From assembly GCA_018221125.1 (NCBI GenBank), contig JAAOYC010000018.1, positions 1-40,511 of the forward strand: a stretch of DNA of 40,511 bases, written 5' to 3'. The stretch comes from Candidatus Woesearchaeota archaeon. Lineage in GTDB: Archaea; Nanobdellota; Nanobdellia; Woesearchaeales; WJKL01. The notes beneath the pieces are model-generated. The model made no database searches and had not been told where the DNA came from. It saw only the letters and a list, made by a program, of their open reading frames with translations. The translations under genes were made by a program, and so were the position numbers. Of the stretch, positions 5,224 to 40,511 are shown one piece after another (within the stretch, counting starts at the first letter, position 1; each line of letters starts with the position of its first letter).

Positions 5224-5260
5224 CACTGGTCACTGGACATGCCTCCGTAAGGTATTTAAA
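5224..5260 (+). promoter_or_regulatory. 16-nt box copy A (5224-5239) plus TATA-like TATTTAAA (5253-5260)
   Basis: Exact CACTGGTCACTGGACA, then a 13-nt spacer and a TATA octamer. The LAGLIDADG gene ATG lies 50 nt after the TATA start. Confidence 0.6.
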
Positions 5261-5302: not shown

Positions 5303-6262
5303 ATGAAAACTCACGAAATTCCAGATTTTCCTAAAATTAAGATCAATAATTATATATCTAAGCTTTCAAATAAAATAAGGATTATTCTGGAGAAAGACCT
5401 TTTTTCAAGTCTAATTAATGAGCCTATTTTAGAAAATATTGCTTTAAATTTGAATTTTCAAAAAGCTTCTTTGAAAAAATATATAAGATATAGAAAATAT
5501 CCTATTTTCTTTCTAAAGGAATTAAATAAACAAATAGATAAAGATGTATTTAATCTGATAGAGCAAAACAATCCCCTCTTTTTTTCTAAATGGAAATTAA
5601 TCAATCTTCCTAATTTTATAAATCCAAAATTAGCTTATTTTGTCGGATATTTACAGGGTGATGGATGTATTGAAAGCAACAAAAGAAGAATAGATTTTAC
5701 TGATGAATATTTGGAACAAATAGAACAAATAAATAAAATATGTTTTGATTTGTTTAATACTTATGGAAGAATTGAAGGAAAACACACAACGATAAGTAAA
5801 AAGGAAGTATATAGATTAGAAGTTGGAAGTTTGGTTCTAAATTCATATTTACATAAAATTTTTGGCATTAATAGAGGAGTAAAAATAAATTTAAAAATTC
5901 CGCAGATATTTACGAAACATAATGAGATACTCAAATGGTATCTTAAGGGATTGTTCGATGCTGATGGAACTTTGCCTAAAAATCCGGATAAATGCAAACA
6001 ATTTTTTATAGATGTTACTTTTAAAGATAAAGAATTTATTGAACAAATTAAGGAAAAATTAGGATTATTTGGAATAAAAACTTTAAAACCCTACTGTAGA
6101 ATTGCAAAATCTCCTACTTCTGATTTTATCTCAAAAACATGGGAATTAAGAATAAGGAAAAAAGAAGATATGGTAAAGTTTTTAAAAGAAATTAGCTTTT
6201 TTCATCCTAATAAAAAAAGAAGGGCAAAAAGGCTCTTGGATTATATTGCGCCTGTGGTGTAG
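5303..6262 (+). CDS. double-motif LAGLIDADG homing-endonuclease family protein with a ~100-aa N-terminal extension
   Basis: Motif 1 LAYFVGYLQGDGCI and motif 2 LKWYLKGLFDADGTL, both keeping the acidic residue. The C-terminus resembles that of the 35349..36071 protein. The last 15 nt overlap tRNA-Arg. Confidence 0.85.
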   Translation: MKTHEIPDFPKIKINNYISKLSNKIRIILEKDLFSSLINEPILENIALNLNFQKASLKKYIRYRKYPIFFLKELNKQIDKDVFNLIEQNNPLFFSKWKLINLPNFINPKLAYFVGYLQGDGCIESNKRRIDFTDEYLEQIEQINKICFDLFNTYGRIEGKHTTISKKEVYRLEVGSLVLNSYLHKIFGINRGVKINLKIPQIFTKHNEILKWYLKGLFDADGTLPKNPDKCKQFFIDVTFKDKEFIEQIKEKLGLFGIKTLKPYCRIAKSPTSDFISKTWELRIRKKEDMVKFLKEISFFHPNKKRRAKRLLDYIAPVV

Positions 6263-6338
6263 TCTGGATAACACAAGTGCCTCCTATTCTTTTTAAGAAG
6301 TAAGCACTAGATCGAGAGTTCGAATCTCTCCAGGCGCG
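6248..6338 (+). tRNA. tRNA-Arg(CCU) with a 16-nt intron at 37/38
   Basis: Acceptor GCGCCTG/CAGGCGC, D stem GTGT/ACAC, anticodon stem AGTGC/GCACT, loop CT-CCT-A[intron 6287-6302]A, T arm GAGAG-TTCGAAT-CTCTC. All stems are Watson-Crick. Confidence 0.85.
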
Positions 6339-6339
6339 T

Positions 6340-27780: not shown

Positions 27781-27912
27781 TTATGGAATCCAGCTGTCAC
27801 TGAATTGAATATCAAAGCTTTCCATTCCGCAACTTCTTTTTGTAATTCTTCTTATTTGTTGGTTAAACAAATCTTTTATTGTATCATGGCTTACATCGGA
27901 TGGGTTATACAT
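27781..27912 (-). CDS. 43-aa micro-ORF (unannotated)
   Basis: ATG preceded by GAGGTGA with a 5-nt spacer. Translation: MYNPSDVSHDTIKDLFNQQIRRITKRSCGMESFDIQFSDSWIP. It overlaps the end of the zinc-ribbon ORF by 22 nt. It falls below the apparent length cutoff of the ORF track. Confidence 0.3.
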   Translation of the reverse strand: MYNPSDVSHDTIKDLFNQQIRRITKRSCGMESFDIQFSDSWIP

Positions 27913-28056: not shown

Positions 28057-28095
28057 TTTAAATACTTCACGCGAGCAGATGTCCAGTGACCAGTG
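28057..28095 (-). promoter_or_regulatory. 16-nt box copy C (28080-28095) plus TATA-like TATTTAAA (28057-28064)
   Basis: Exact box on the minus strand, then a 15-nt spacer and a TATA octamer reading towards the zinc-ribbon ORF. Confidence 0.6.
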
Positions 28096-28147: not shown

Positions 28148-28170
28148 CACTGGACAAAAAATTTATAAAA
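28148..28170 (+). promoter_or_regulatory. half-box CACTGGACA (28148-28156) plus TTTATAAAA (28162-28170)
   Basis: A single repeat unit of the box on the plus strand. It forms a 9-nt inverted repeat with 28080-28088. The TATA-like element lies about 27 nt upstream of ATG 28192. The 5-nt spacing differs from that of the full copies. Confidence 0.4.
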
Positions 28171-35187: not shown

Positions 35188-35311
35188 CGCCGAGGATGAG
35201 ATTTGAACTCATGTGCCCCGAAGGACAATAGATTTTTGTGTGCCATTGTAAGTTTCTTACGAACAATGTTCGTAGCAATCTACCGCAATGGCCAGACTAT
35301 GCGACCTCGGC
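35188..35311 (-). tRNA. tRNA-Ser(GCU), type II, with a 39-nt intron at 37/38
   Basis: Hand fold of the reverse complement. Acceptor GCCGAGG/CCTCGGC, D stem GCA/TGC, anticodon stem GTAGA/TCTAT (one G-U), loop TT-GCT-A[intron 35234-35272]A, long variable arm TGTCC-TTCG-GGGCA, T arm ATGAG-TTCAAAT-CTCAT, discriminator G. CTTTAAAAA lies about 30 nt upstream. Confidence 0.8.
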
Positions 35312-35348: not shown

Positions 35349-36071
35349 CTATAAATTATATTTTTTAACTAATTGAACAAAACGTTTTTTATTAAACGGA
35401 ATTCTAAATCCTATTTCTTTAAATTTTGCAAAATTTTCTTTTTTATAAATAGATATTCTATATTGCCTAGTCCTATTTATTCCTCCAATTCTCGGTTTGA
35501 TGTAAGATTCTATATCTAAACTAGCTAAAATCTTCTTTATATCAAAGGCAAATTCTTCATCTTTTGTAATGAATCTAATTTCACTTAAAGATTTTAATAT
35601 TGTTCCTTCCATATCATAAGCTTGCTGCAGATATGCAATTCTAACTGATTTAGAAGAACCAAAAATCCAAGATGGAATTCTCATCTGTTCATTTGATTTG
35701 GGGATTCCAATAATATGATAACAGAATCTTGCTAATGTTTTTGAGTTAGTATAAATGTCAGTGCAACCTTTTTTGTCTATTTTTGTAAATATTTTATTCT
35801 TTGGAGAAAATATCTTTGTTATCAAATCTCTAAATAACTTTATTTTATTTAAATCTTTTTTCTGATGAAAATATATTCTCATCAAATCTTTTATTAAACT
35901 ACCATCGGGCATCATTCCAGCAAACCTTGCACAATCTTCATCTAATTGAAATGGTATTTTAATAAATATATTATTCCTTCCATTACCATATTTCAATTTA
36001 TATTTGCTATAATGAGGAGAAATTTCAAAATACCTCTCCAATAAATCTTTGGTTATTTTATTTGATTTCAT
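35349..36071 (-). CDS. divergent LAGLIDADG homing-endonuclease family protein
   Basis: Degenerate motif 1 CARFAGMMPDGS and motif 2 IAYLQQAYDMEGT, with acidic residues retained. The C-terminus RISIYKKENFAKFKEIGF parallels RIRKKEDMVKFLKEISF of the 5303..6262 protein. Confidence 0.75.
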   Translation of the reverse strand: MKSNKITKDLLERYFEISPHYSKYKLKYGNGRNNIFIKIPFQLDEDCARFAGMMPDGSLIKDLMRIYFHQKKDLNKIKLFRDLITKIFSPKNKIFTKIDKKGCTDIYTNSKTLARFCYHIIGIPKSNEQMRIPSWIFGSSKSVRIAYLQQAYDMEGTILKSLSEIRFITKDEEFAFDIKKILASLDIESYIKPRIGGINRTRQYRISIYKKENFAKFKEIGFRIPFNKKRFVQLVKKYNL

Positions 36072-36110: not shown

Positions 36111-36147
36111 TTTATAAGCTCTATGGCTACTTGTCCAGTGACCAGTG
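36111..36147 (-). promoter_or_regulatory. 16-nt box copy B (36132-36147) plus TATA-like TTATAAA (36111-36117)
   Basis: Exact box on the minus strand, then a 14-nt spacer and a TATA. The ATG of the LAGLIDADG gene lies 46 nt after the TATA start. Confidence 0.6.
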
Positions 36148-36259
36148 GAAAAATTATAATTTAACAATTATTCATTAAGGATAATTGAAATCAATTAGAA
36201 TTACAAAGATACCCATTATAGCAAGTTTTATAAAAGGATATATGTTTTTTTGACAATAT

Positions 36260-36415
36260 AGCGAGGTGGGGCTTGAGTAGCCTTAATTGACTACTCACCC
36301 AAGAGTCAGGAGTGCCCGTCGGGCTCATATTGCTTTGAGCAACGAGACACCCGGAAAAGAAGGAGTAAATGCCTTCTTTGGGCAAAGGTCGGAAGTTCAA
36401 ATCTTCCCCTCGCTA
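36260..36415 (+). tRNA. initiator-type tRNA-Met(CAU) with apparently three introns (D region, 37/38, variable region)
   Basis: Acceptor AGCGAGG/CCTCGCT (A1:U72), anticodon stem TCGGG/CCCGG with three consecutive G-C pairs next to the loop, loop CT-CAT-A[19 nt]A, T arm GGAAG-TTCAAAT-CTTCC, discriminator A. The D stem GGGC...GCCC is separated by 41 nt, and 36 nt sit where a 5-nt variable loop is expected. The gene is 156 nt against about 75 nt mature. Confidence 0.65.
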
Positions 36416-36450
36416 TATTTTCTAAAAAAAAAGAGTGATAGCAATTTAAA

Positions 36451-39435: not shown

Positions 39436-39708
39436 TTATAAAATATTTCTGATGCTTGCGATATTGTCAGCAACATCACTGCCTTTCTTTGTCAATGTAA
39501 GAAGCTTTAATCTTCCTTGTTTTTCAAAGTTGATTAAAGAAGCTTTTTCCATTTCCTGAAGAATTTTTACGACGTGAGAATATGTGCAGTCAATCTGTTT
39601 TGCTAATGATGAGGCATACATTGCTCCTTTTGTATTCTTTAGTCCAACTAACATCATAGCCGGTTTTTCCCGGAAAAAAATGTTAAAAATTTTTTCTTTT
39701 TCACTCAT
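39436..39708 (-). CDS. small winged-helix (wHTH) DNA-binding protein
   Basis: 90 aa. MYASSLAKQIDCTYSHVVKILQEMEKASLINFEKQGRLKLLTLTKKG fits an HTH plus beta-wing pattern. It is divergent from xpd. Confidence 0.6.
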   Translation of the reverse strand: MSEKEKIFNIFFREKPAMMLVGLKNTKGAMYASSLAKQIDCTYSHVVKILQEMEKASLINFEKQGRLKLLTLTKKGSDVADNIASIRNIL

Positions 39709-39820
39709 GTTATTACCCCCAAAGTATATAGTCGATAATATATATTTGTAAATATCTGTAGAAATTACACCTTTATATATTTATCGATTTTGTTATTTTT
39801 TAAGACGAGACTGTTGTATA

Positions 39821-39912
39821 AGACAATCGAAACCAAATAATTAGTTGAGCACTGGTCACTGGACAAGACAATCGCGAGTCCAGATAACCAGTTAAGCACT
39901 GGTCACTGGACA
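39821..39912 (+). repeat. tandem 45/47-nt duplication carrying box copies D (39850-39865) and E (39897-39912)
   Basis: Both units start AGACAATCG and end ..AGCACTGGTCACTGGACA. The interior is partly diverged. Confidence 0.8.
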
Positions 39913-39935
39913 AGTACCTCCATAAACTATATAAA
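39897..39935 (+). promoter_or_regulatory. 16-nt box copy E plus TATA-like TATATAAA (39928-39935), the xpd promoter
   Basis: Exact box, a 15-nt spacer and a TATA octamer. ATG 39960 lies 32 nt after the TATA start (leaderless geometry). Confidence 0.6.
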
Positions 39936-39959
39936 TCAATTAGAAATTCTTTTAGTATA

Positions 39960-40511
39960 ATGTCTGTCGATGAAGGCCTAAGGGAATTGTTGTTTCCCTA
40001 CAAAGAAGTTAGGAGGATCCAGGATGATCTTATCAAAGAAGTTGATAATTCTATTAAGTTCAAGAGGAATCTGATTGTACATGCTCCAACTGGATTAGGG
40101 AAAACAGCTGCAACATTGCCAATGGCTTTGTCTCATGCAGTAAAGAATGGACTGACTGTCTTTTTTTTGACGTCAAGGCATACCCAGCATCTAATTGCAT
40201 TGGAGACTTTGAAAGATATAAAGAAAAAATATGACAAGGAAATAATTGCAGTTGATCTGATTGGGAAGAAATGGATGTGCCCTGTTCCTGGAACAGACGA
40301 GCTGAGCAGTTTTGAGTTTACTGAATATTGCAAATCAATGCGAGGAGATAATAAATGCGAGTTTTTTGTCAATTCAAGAAAGAAATCTGGCAGGCCGACA
40401 TTAAAAGCAGAGAAAGCTGTTATTGATTTAAAGAAATTAAGCCCCTGTCATTGCGAGAATCTGGTTGAATATTGTACAGAAGAAAAAATATGCCCTTATG
40501 AAATCTCTACC
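39960..40511 (+). CDS. xpd: XPD/Rad3-family Fe-S DNA helicase, N-terminal part running off the right edge
   Basis: Open frame to the window end: MSVDEGLRELLFPYKEVRRIQ..., Walker A HAPTGLGKT, and spaced Cys residues (CPVPG, YCKSMRGDNKCEFF, ICPYE) consistent with the 4Fe-4S domain. It is missing from the ORF track because it is truncated. Confidence 0.85.
   Translation, partial: MSVDEGLRELLFPYKEVRRIQDDLIKEVDNSIKFKRNLIVHAPTGLGKTAATLPMALSHAVKNGLTVFFLTSRHTQHLIALETLKDIKKKYDKEIIAVDLIGKKWMCPVPGTDELSSFEFTEYCKSMRGDNKCEFFVNSRKKSGRPTLKAEKAVIDLKKLSPCHCENLVEYCTEEKICPYEIST

Follow-up and report, generated by a model that had tools for sequence, protein, structure and literature searches.

A direct-repeat promoter element of Woesearchaeota that probably marks a recombination, repair and replication regulon and is shared by selfish genes

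INTRODUCTION

Why does one and the same 16-nucleotide sequence stand upstream of an XPD helicase gene, two LAGLIDADG genes and a pair of very small open reading frames (ORFs) in a single archaeal contig? The contig, JAAOYC010000018.1 of assembly GCA_018221125.1 (Candidatus Woesearchaeota archaeon), is 40,511 nt long, and its whole length is called the window here; the sequence, CACTGGTCACTGGACA, is called the box. An earlier note on this DNA had described the box as invariant, and had proposed that it controls a DNA-damage or selfish-element regulon through one of three proteins encoded in the window, namely a winged helix-turn-helix (wHTH) protein, Orc1/Cdc6 or the LAGLIDADG proteins themselves. 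The setting makes such a proposal of some interest. To our knowledge, the DPANN archaea are mostly uncultivated and have few transcription factors, and their gene regulation is almost unstudied; we also know of only one well-established archaeal damage regulon, that of Orc1-2 and its DNA damage-responsive element (DDRE) in the Sulfolobales. Earlier archaeal UV studies, according to PMC6061795, gave no conclusive evidence of a damage regulon. Full-text searches of the library consulted brought up neither a paper on the motif in such a setting nor one on promoter regulons of DPANN archaea.

In this report, we describe the box in the window and in at least 48 archaeal assemblies, the genes behind it and the proteins that might bind it. 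Our data suggest that the box is probably an upstream promoter element of a recombination, repair and replication regulon of Woesearchaeota that selfish elements have adopted.

RESULTS

Five oriented copies of the box in the window

The window contains five exact copies of the box (Table 1), against an expectation of 0.15, and none of 100 dinucleotide-preserving shuffles reached five; no further match was found in the window at up to three mismatches. According to the ORF list and the Pfam/domain annotation of the window, all five copies are intergenic. The 16-mer is made up of two units placed head to tail, CACTGGT and CACTGGA, followed by CA. With the TATA boxes of all window copies registered on the 8-mer TWTWTAWA, the spacing from box to TATA is 13, 15, 13 and 15 nt at the four promoters, each of which is oriented towards its gene, and the ATGs at 5303, 28034, 36071 and 39960 follow 30-50 nt past the start of the TATA element. 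In two cases, 28034 and 39960, the distance from the TATA 8-mer to the ATG is 22-24 nt, which is a leaderless geometry. On these points the earlier note was accurate: an exact-match search recovered its five copies, their number is beyond chance, their intergenic location, the start-codon distances and the two leaderless starts hold, and its TATA coordinates are right, with the single amendment that the third spacing is 13 nt once registered on the 8-mer.

When the five copies were aligned together with their flanks (80 nt upstream, 100 nt downstream), the upstream flanks proved unrelated, and downstream the copies share a purine-rich stretch and the TATA box only. Neither terminal repeats nor target duplications were found around the copies.

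Two of the five copies precede xpd, where they lie in a 45/47-nt tandem duplication that the earlier note had described correctly; the period from box to box is 47 nt. A like array with three boxes and a 39-nt period is present at the xpd gene of a related locus, L113. Between the boxes of these arrays, GAGTCCAGATAACCA is kept both in the window (39868-39890) and in L113 (2549-2571 and 2588-2610). It includes GTCCAG, which on the other strand reads as part of the core of the motif defined below, and may be an inverted partial site or a remnant of a duplicated TATA region.

The same promoter arrangement in at least 48 archaeal assemblies

Searching species-representative genomes for exact matches to the 16-mer yielded at least 113 loci (loci that were fetched carry L-numbers), among them at least 73 archaeal loci from at least 48 assemblies. 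The archaeal loci are labelled Woesearchaeota, Nanoarchaeota or 'archaeon', or belong to Methanosarcinales metagenome-assembled genomes (MAGs) with Woesearchaeota-specific genes, and their GC content ranges from 28 to 49%. About 40 matches are bacterial; among those listed, they are single and lie in high-GC DNA or in simple repeats of the CTGGnCA type, with no TATA or promoter context.

With a TATA match threshold of at least 7 of 8 positions, a TATA box follows 11-17 nt downstream in the same orientation at 78 of the 81 exact archaeal copies, the window included; this count and those of copies, promoters and target genes given below are counts among the matches listed. The uncorrected spacings are 13 nt (n=49), 15 nt (n=19), 17 nt (n=4), 11 nt (n=4) and 14 nt (n=2), and the four copies at 11 nt re-register to 13 nt by eye. 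The three copies outside this register are upstream members of xpd arrays. All 78 TATA-linked copies point towards a gene. A purine-rich 7-nt stretch (cgtgagg, cgtaagg) precedes the TATA box and resembles a transcription factor B recognition element (BRE), so that the box ends ~6 nt upstream of the BRE, roughly at -45 from the start site, and at many box promoters an ATG lies 22-25 nt after the TATA box. In the 569 kb of box loci there are 81 exact copies, two copies with one mismatch and one with two, and permuted 16-mers had no match in the same 569 kb. The box is therefore a promoter-linked, oriented cis-element, and it keeps the same TATA register in the related genomes that carry it. Promoters of relatives that carry it include those of zinc-ribbon and LAGLIDADG genes and, in close relatives, that of XPD.

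Many of the MAGs with the box are labelled 'uncultured Methanosarcinales archaeon' (L009, L010, L012, L014, L021, L070 and others). Four of them, L012, L014, L021 and L070, also carry the Woesearchaeota-specific operon of a small protein and radA that is described below, and the Methanosarcinales label of these box-bearing MAGs is probably wrong.

Could the box simply be the core of a dispersed repeat, a miniature inverted-repeat transposable element (MITE) or a portable promoter cassette, spread by transposition and read by no dedicated regulator? Five identical copies in 40 kb would fit such an origin, as would the compactness of the box, BRE and TATA, which together form a unit of ~40 nt, and the presence of the box at mobile genes. 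We nevertheless give this explanation hardly any credence. Outside the 16-mer the copies have only generic BRE and TATA positions in common, terminal repeats and target duplications are absent, all TATA-linked copies face genes, one and the same motif occurs in at least 48 species over the whole GC range of the loci, and it is kept at orthologous promoters (the radA operon and the zinc-ribbon ORF). Viral contigs show the promoter arrangement at one of five box matches, and a viral origin of the box was rejected on the same count. Because the flanks are unrelated and the orientation bias is complete, a MITE or other dispersed repeat was rejected, and the longer repeat that the earlier note had held against its own regulon is contradicted.

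Recombination and repair genes behind the box

Target classes were derived from clustering of the downstream ORFs and from domain searches. The commonest target, with 12 box promoters, is the operon of a small protein and radA, followed by LAGLIDADG genes (11-12 of ~76 promoters) and by a zinc-ribbon and/or ~45-aa ORF next to sua5 (11 loci, of which four zinc-ribbon and three small ORFs cluster by BLAST and the rest were assigned by eye on LFxxQI). Next come an RNase_H_2-type exonuclease (five), a Cas4/PD-(D/E)XK nuclease (three), Bro-N (three) and KilA-N (one). Hef (helicase, ERCC4 and HhH), MCM, XPD, RadC, the TIGR03916 'DNA modification/repair radical SAM protein', tyrosine integrases and type I restriction-modification (R-M) genes occur twice each, Hjc and DUF763 once each, and several toxin-antitoxin-like pairs complete the list. 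In all, ~50 of the ~76 box promoters precede genes of recombination, repair, replication or DNA mobility, and no ribosomal, metabolic or biosynthetic, or tRNA-synthetase gene is found among the targets listed.

Single genomes hold three or four of these targets. The boxes of YT2_768 precede hjc, the radA operon, a Cas4-like nuclease and a zinc-ribbon ORF; those of SRP141376_co2_190 precede the radA operon, a radical-SAM gene and radC; and those of DeMMO1_7 precede mcm, a KilA-N gene and a LAGLIDADG gene. The DNA-transaction theme that had been noticed among the few box genes of the window thus extends, with the radA operon, Hef, XPD, MCM, Hjc, RadC, nucleases, LAGLIDADG and mobile genes, over at least 48 assemblies.

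The radA operon and the conserved core of the motif

The first gene of the commonest target encodes a protein of ~90 aa. A Rad51/RecA-family gene comes next on the same strand in 12 of 12 loci selected by the box and likewise in seven of seven loci fetched via the protein alone (family loci L001, L012, L014, L021, L024, L049, L050, L070, L078, L081, L084, L094 and L194-L200). These seven loci provide a view of the promoter that is free of selection for the box; three of them have the same sequence, which leaves five distinct promoters. In each of the five a variant of the box can be recognised, with a TATA box 11-15 nt downstream of it (CACTccCCACTGGACA, CACTGGACACACTGGACA, CCCCACTGGACA, CCACTGGACAACTGGTCA and CACACTAGACA): CACTccCCACTGGACA occurs in L195, L196 and L198, CCACTGGACAACTGGTCA in L194 and CACACTAGACA in L197, L200 has CCCCACTGGACA alone, and L199 has CACTGGACA-CACTGGACA with a 9-nt period. 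The box or a recognisable variant is therefore present at the radA operon in 19 of 19 loci examined.

The 9-mer CACTGGACA recurs in other DNA as well. In 479 kb not selected for the box it is found 12 times, versus 2.2 for permuted 9-mers, and nine of these 12 have a TATA box 10-18 nt downstream, versus 0.3 expected. In L197, one and the same variant, CACTyCCCACACTrGmCA, lies 13 nt before the TATA box at both the radA operon and hef, as expected if a factor and its sites co-evolve. (A TrmB-like neighbour of hef in L197 is not recurrent near boxes.) Read across these promoters, the true core of the motif is the TATA-proximal 9-mer CACTGGACA, with the 16-mer as its commonest two-unit form; the invariance ascribed to the 16-mer from the window does not hold across the lineage.

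The ~90-aa family has the consensus PEKKFRAGAVSATIW...YKDK.G.W..T.SLR..DLPKA and no sequence match in Pfam, NCBIfam or the PDB, and its phyletic range is the same as that of the box. Its model is confident (predicted local distance difference test score, pLDDT, 87) and consists of a four-stranded sheet and a long helix. A Foldseek search of the model against the PDB gave nothing below E 0.1, the best match being a weak one to a small Mycoplasma single-stranded DNA-binding protein (SSB; TM-score 0.34), and with no significant structural match a PC4-like or SSB-like identity is at most tentative. The protein is more likely a recombination accessory protein than the regulator of the box, and it may be a lineage-specific partner of RadA or a single-stranded DNA-binding protein.

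The radA operon also has a 5' leader of 50-180 nt (for example ~2070-1950 on the minus strand of L014 and ~9900-10000 of L199). In 15 of 17 loci this leader closes, directly ahead of the Shine-Dalgarno sequence, with TGAAAYAARANGCGAAAGCAA, a stretch that is strongly conserved whatever the reading frame. The leader matches no Rfam family and its 3' part has no consensus fold; the TGAAAYAARANGCGAAAGCAA stretch may be a protein-binding or translational control element.

xpd promoters and the winged-helix neighbour

Independently of the box, 80 XPD loci were fetched from metagenomes, with proteins 34-78% identical to the window XPD. Boxes at XPD were found in close relatives: exact in L116, as two variants in L114 and as the 9-mer alone in L115, beside the boxed L113. 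Outside the close relatives there is one weak core (L166) and none at the other ~73 promoters. The place of xpd in the box set is thus secure in the window and its close relatives, and fails for a core member when ~77-78 XPD loci are considered; XPD is therefore a recent, lineage-specific recruit.

The wHTH gene is the divergent neighbour of xpd, and it was this divergence that had made its 90-aa product (39436-39708) a candidate binder. It has a DNA-binding fold of the HTH_27/MarR-like type, its family of more than 3500 members is, like the box, restricted to genomes labelled Woesearchaeota or Nanoarchaeota, and its conservation (68-95% identity where XPD is only 34-59% identical) would fit a protein that reads a near-invariant site. 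The divergent wHTH-xpd pair, however, is present in at least 45 of 78 XPD loci, and ~40 of these have no box at XPD. Because the pairing is kept regardless of the box, adjacency is uninformative on box binding, and with it goes the sole positional argument for the wHTH protein. Small dimers of the MarR-like type, moreover, usually recognize palindromic sites, in contrast to the direct repeat of the box. A palindrome, TTTATCGWCGATAAA (TTTATCG(A/T)CGATAAA), does occur in 19 of 46 wHTH-xpd intergenic regions, ~6x background, though not in the window (L193, L165, L156, L164, L150, L187, L160, L188 and others); it may be the operator of the wHTH protein and would be the more natural one for a small dimeric wHTH. 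Binding of the box by this protein is, in our estimate, improbable.

L113 differs from the window in a further respect. At 1729-2500, between its wHTH gene and xpd, it has a two-gene cassette, absent from the window, that is driven by a one-mismatch box, CACTGGaCACTGGACA, and a TATA box of its own. This insertion shows how mobile cassettes carry the element.

LAGLIDADG genes, other selfish genes and tRNA genes

The LAGLIDADG genes driven by the box are stand-alone units, and both proteins of the window keep the acidic residues of their motifs, as read from the sequences. Of 13 such genes, six (the window pair and those of L017, L032, L079 and L098) have a tRNA gene within ~50 nt of their end, either co-directional or convergent. 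In the window, the 3' end of the gene at 5303-6262 abuts an intron-containing tRNA-Arg(CCT) gene (6247-6339), and the gene at 35349-36071 is followed on the same strand by an intron-containing tRNA gene (35188-35311; 39.9 bits, 41-nt intron), which was found at a relaxed threshold only. This suggests that tRNA genes are the target or landing site of the box LAGLIDADG genes. In our reading, these would be free-standing genes of homing-type endonucleases tied to tRNA genes, with a regulon promoter that was acquired or travels with them. The box is carried by other genes of this sort too, namely integrases, Bro-N/KilA-N genes, R-M genes and toxin-antitoxin cassettes.

Conversely, the box might belong to the LAGLIDADG genes in the first place, either as an operator for autorepression, as the earlier note had suggested by analogy with I-TevI, or as a homing target, the boxes of host genes being secondary. 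LAGLIDADG genes are indeed the second commonest class of target, and homing endonucleases are known to exploit near-invariant sites of this sort. However, radA, hef, mcm and hjc have the box in genomes or loci where no LAGLIDADG gene is close by, and the identity of the box-linked LAGLIDADG proteins to the window pair is just ~23-27%, which makes one shared 16-bp specificity unlikely. What follows the LAGLIDADG genes are unrelated housekeeping genes, in many cases on the opposite strand, with no sign of insertion, so that an insertion of LAGLIDADG genes between a box promoter and a regulon gene is not supported either, and the tRNA genes abutted by six of 13 are the better candidates for a target or landing site. 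We consider it very unlikely that the box originated with these genes, and the proposed self-regulation is not supported.

The tRNA genes of the window deserve a remark of their own. Three contain introns (2793-2887, 6247-6339 and 35188-35311, the last on the minus strand), and a probable fourth with a long insert lies at ~36259-36416 on the plus strand, where ARAGORN and Rfam missed it. A 34-nt inverted repeat (35176-35209/36394-36427) corresponds to the 3' ends of two tRNA genes.

Window genes around the box beside orc1

The window holds genes of a small archaeal chromosome. They include translation and tRNA genes (TruD, RtcB, archease, GatDE, seryl-tRNA synthetase and ribosomal protein S15) and genes for replication-related proteins and ATPases (Cdc48, a RecJ/Cdc45-like protein and Orc1/Cdc6), as well as XPD. 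The nearest relatives among the fetched loci are Candidatus Woesearchaeota MAGs, with Orc1 80-84% and XPD 78% identical, the latter being the value for L113. Four promoters of the window have the box, those of the two LAGLIDADG genes, of a zinc-ribbon/43-aa ORF pair and of xpd, the last with two boxes (Table 1).

The box at 28080 had been assigned to a zinc-ribbon micro-ORF. It does precede this ORF, and orthologues stand behind the same box promoter in L056, L108 and L110; the promoter, however, drives two overlapping ORFs, of 47 and 43 aa. The second belongs to a family of small ORFs of 33-52 aa behind box promoters, with the pattern ..I..LF..QI..L(T/S).. and with relatives in L008, L009, L010, L018, L026, L052 and L088, usually beside sua5 and near orc1. 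Membership was assigned mostly by eye on LFxxQI, BLAST clustering L009, L010 and L026 only, and ORFs of 33-52 aa are too short for the family searches used.

A half-box, CACTGGACA, faces the gene of an FHA-domain protein, as had been noted. The probable start of this gene is ATG 28192 and not TTG 28126, and therefore the half-box is upstream of the gene. Its function for the FHA gene is doubtful, the spacing being 6 nt and not 13; the half-box itself is there, and a regulon link of the FHA gene is not borne out by a single half-box at non-canonical spacing.

The neighbour of this group is orc1, and the order orc1, box, small ORF and sua5 is common to the window, L056, L108 and L110. This brings us to Orc1/Cdc6 as a binder. 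The archaeal origin recognition box (ORB) has the consensus CTTCCAGTGGAAACGAAAGGGGT (PMC4153887), and each unit of the box has CACTGG(A) in common with the ORB core TTCCA(G/C)TGGAA (PMC4153887). The box could accordingly be an ORB-derived element read by a transcription regulator of the Orc1/Cdc6 family, with the FHA protein perhaps taking part in phospho-signalling. Orc1-2 is the master DNA-damage regulator in Saccharolobus (PMC6061795), and an FHA protein, ArnA, is reported to be a damage-response repressor there (PMC10470591). In addition, the box lies beside orc1 in the four loci just named, and L075 and L095 each have a box promoter upstream of orc1 but separated from it by an R-M gene. 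ORB and box share the heptamer TCCAGTG/CACTGGA, both are highly conserved within and between genomes, and the short multi-box arrays at xpd, with their 39-47-nt period, resemble iterons.

Set against this, the likeness is limited to 6-7 nt. The dyad TTCCAGTGGAAA, the GGAAA and the G-rich extension of the ORB are absent from the box, and the Sulfolobales element ANTTTC is unrelated to it in sequence. ORBs cluster around an AT-rich unwinding element by orc1, whereas the box copies of the window are dispersed at four promoters over 35 kb; the one copy near orc1 lies 3' of the gene, and its 108-nt upstream region contains no box. The adjacency to orc1 is one inherited syntenic position, not many independent events, and the FHA gene is missing from that position in L056, L108 and L110. 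The canonical core TTCCASTGGAAA has no exact match in the 113 loci and none in the window, where matches at up to two mismatches number 15 versus 9.8 expected, the chance level, and a canonical ORB or replication origin was rejected for this element. The TCCAGTG overlap on which Orc1/Cdc6 had been proposed is thus real, but at 7 nt and with no canonical ORB found it lends no support to binding. By analogy, Orc1/Cdc6 is possibly the binder and would be the most attractive specific guess, though still a guess; an ORB-derived element read by this family seems to us rather unlikely, if a better prospect than the wHTH protein.

Table 1. Coordinates of the box copies, TATA elements and neighbouring genes in the window
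Feature	Position	Strand	Remarks
Full box CACTGGTCACTGGACA	5224..5239	+	Exact match; 13 nt upstream of TATA
TATA TATTTAAA	5253..5260	+	Purine-rich, BRE-like cgtaagg before it
LAGLIDADG gene, free-standing, 319 aa	5303..6262	+	Pfam LAGLIDADG_3, E 3.6e-17; two motifs with acidic residues
43-aa ORF (MYNPSDVSHDTIKDLFNQQIR...)	27781..27912	-	Shine-Dalgarno GGAGGTGA; overlaps end of zinc-ribbon ORF
Zinc-ribbon ORF (CxxC...CxxC), 47 aa	27891..28034	-	ATG 22 nt past TATA 8-mer (leaderless)
TATA TATTTAAA	28057..28064	-	BRE-like cgtgaag
Full box	28080..28095	-	15 nt upstream of TATA; between orc1/cdc6 and small ORFs with sua5
Half-box CACTGGACA	28148..28156	+	6 nt before TTATAAAA (28163-28170); faces FHA gene
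FHA-domain protein, 111 aa	28192..28527	+	Pfam FHA, E 9e-17; probable start ATG 28192
Orc1/Cdc6, 357 aa	28524..29597	-	TIGR02928, 191 bits; conserved neighbour of box 28080
Second LAGLIDADG gene, free-standing, 240 aa	35349..36071	-	Pfam LAGLIDADG_3, E 2.4e-9
TATA cTTATAAA	36111..36118	-	Read on minus strand
Full box	36132..36147	-	13 nt upstream of TATA
Winged-helix protein, 90 aa	39436..39708	-	HTH_27/MarR-like; divergent neighbour of xpd
Tandem duplication bearing both xpd boxes	39820..39911	+	Units 39820-39864 (45 nt) and 39865-39911 (47 nt)
Distal xpd box	39850..39865	+	Followed after 13 nt by TCCAGATA, not TATA
Proximal xpd box	39897..39912	+	15 nt upstream of TATA
xpd TATA TATATAAA	39928..39935	+	15 nt after proximal box
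XPD/Rad3 helicase, N-terminal 184 aa (runs off window)	39960..40511	+	Pfam DEAD_2; ATG 24 nt past TATA 8-mer

DISCUSSION

The conservation of the box, its fixed place and orientation before TATA boxes, the genes behind it, its phyletic range and the parallel variants at radA and hef in one genome are best explained, in our view, by an upstream promoter element of a regulon, and we infer that a protein binds it. Of the DNA-damage or selfish-element control regulon first proposed for the window, the gene set and the selfish genes are retained, and none of the three named binders is supported. A putative sequence-specific protein would bind one unit (~9 bp) head to tail, with one molecule per unit, and extra units, whether at 7-, 8- or 9-nt periods or in the 39-47-nt arrays at xpd, would raise its occupancy. 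The box keeps a single orientation and lies mostly 13 nt, in fewer cases 15 or 17 nt, before the TATA box, roughly at -45 to -60 from the transcription start; from there, just upstream of the BRE, a bound factor would help or hinder the recruitment of TBP and TFB. A location just upstream of the BRE is typical of activators in archaeal promoters. The position of the box thus suggests an activator, and a repressor would also be possible.

Several points weigh against this interpretation. The position of the box is the only argument for regulation and for its direction. The core promoters, with their near-consensus TATA boxes and BRE-like stretches, would also suit a repressor or a constitutive, enhancer-like role, and activator-dependent promoters are often weaker. 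The invariance of the 16-mer is in part a matter of ascertainment, the scan having asked for exact matches, and the box-free test on radA comprises only five distinct promoter sequences. About one-fifth of the targets are tiny ORFs or uncharacterised proteins, and membership is fluid, as the core is present at XPD in three close relatives and one weak case among 77 independently found promoters.

As to the signal, the core of the regulon would be the operon of the small protein and radA, and its lineage-variable periphery would comprise Hef, XPD, Hjc, MCM, RadC, the Cas4-like nuclease, the RNase-H-like exonuclease and the radical-SAM repair protein. With radA as its conserved centre and with nucleases, repair helicases and mobile genes around it, such a regulon would most plausibly respond to DNA damage or replication stress. 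A programme coupled to the cell cycle or to replication, comparable to S-phase gene sets and run by a periodic activator or repressor, is the main alternative. Two species have MCM among their targets, a box is found next to orc1, and replication and recombination genes are mixed among the targets; archaeal cell-cycle transcription factors that act via short promoter motifs are known as well (aCcr1-3, PMC13199686). Yet radA is the best-conserved target, the periphery consists mainly of nucleases, repair helicases and mobile elements, as is typical of damage regulons, and no gene of cell division, nucleotide synthesis, polymerase or primase is found among the ~76 promoters listed. We hold such a programme to be unlikely, though worth keeping in mind.

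The box at selfish and mobile genes probably couples their expression to the recombination response of the host, and for LAGLIDADG genes, expression together with RadA would favour repair-mediated copying. A more far-reaching model is conceivable, to which we would give somewhat less than an even chance: an SOS-like regulon throughout the Woesearchaeota, and perhaps the Nanoarchaeota, with CACTGGACA as its core and an Orc1/Cdc6 paralogue, the 90-aa wHTH protein or another factor as its regulator, from a family so far without a link to damage control in these archaea, and whose element the mobile genes would have copied so as to be expressed at the time of RadA.

How does the box compare with known systems? 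The DDRE read by Orc1-2 in the Sulfolobales (PMC6061795) is likewise an archaeal promoter motif; there it is common to genes induced by DNA damage, and the dedicated regulator that binds it activates transcription. The two differ in most particulars: the DDRE is the hexamer ANTTTC, lies at -23 to -55 from the ATG and precedes ups, ced and tfb3 (PMC6061795), whereas the box is an unrelated 9/16-mer direct repeat, lies 13 nt upstream of the TATA box and precedes radA, hef, hjc, mcm and nucleases. The DDRE belongs to Thermoproteota with an Orc1-2 regulator, and the box to DPANN archaea. In bacteria, the SOS box with LexA, the radiation/desiccation response motif (RDRM) of Deinococcus with DdrO, and the WYL-type systems (PafBC, DriD) similarly place a cis-element before the recombinase and a variable set of repair genes, and these regulons likewise keep a core, vary in their periphery and recruit mobile elements, integrases and toxin-antitoxin genes. 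Their motifs, however, are palindromes that overlap promoters and are mostly repressor operators, in contrast to the oriented direct repeat upstream of BRE and TATA, which belong to another transcription machinery, and no LexA, DdrO or WYL homologue was seen in the Pfam/domain annotation of the window. Similar in geometry are the activator sites of Ptr2 and TFB-RF1, which, as the box does, lie directly upstream of BRE and TATA at a near-fixed distance and orientation, a placement that would suit recruitment of TBP and TFB; they serve single operons or small regulons of cultivated euryarchaea, with Lrp-family or other binders. Unlike them, the box is conserved across a whole DPANN lineage. It also has traits of an ORB, with one copy next to orc1 and short arrays at xpd. 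Taken together, the box would work like the cis-element of a damage regulon but belongs by its sequence, symmetry and position to none of SOS box, RDRM and DDRE.

If the model of an SOS-like regulon is correct, the box would define the second archaeal damage regulon known by a promoter motif and the first in DPANN. An element of 9-16 bp at radA and at repair and replication genes in ~50 species provides a testable handle on damage regulation in these archaea, and it could serve as a bait for the regulator, as a predictor of regulon members in Woesearchaeota and as a marker in metatranscriptomes. Its presence at the genes of homing endonucleases and at other selfish genes suggests, in addition, that these are expressed in time with the recombination response of their host.

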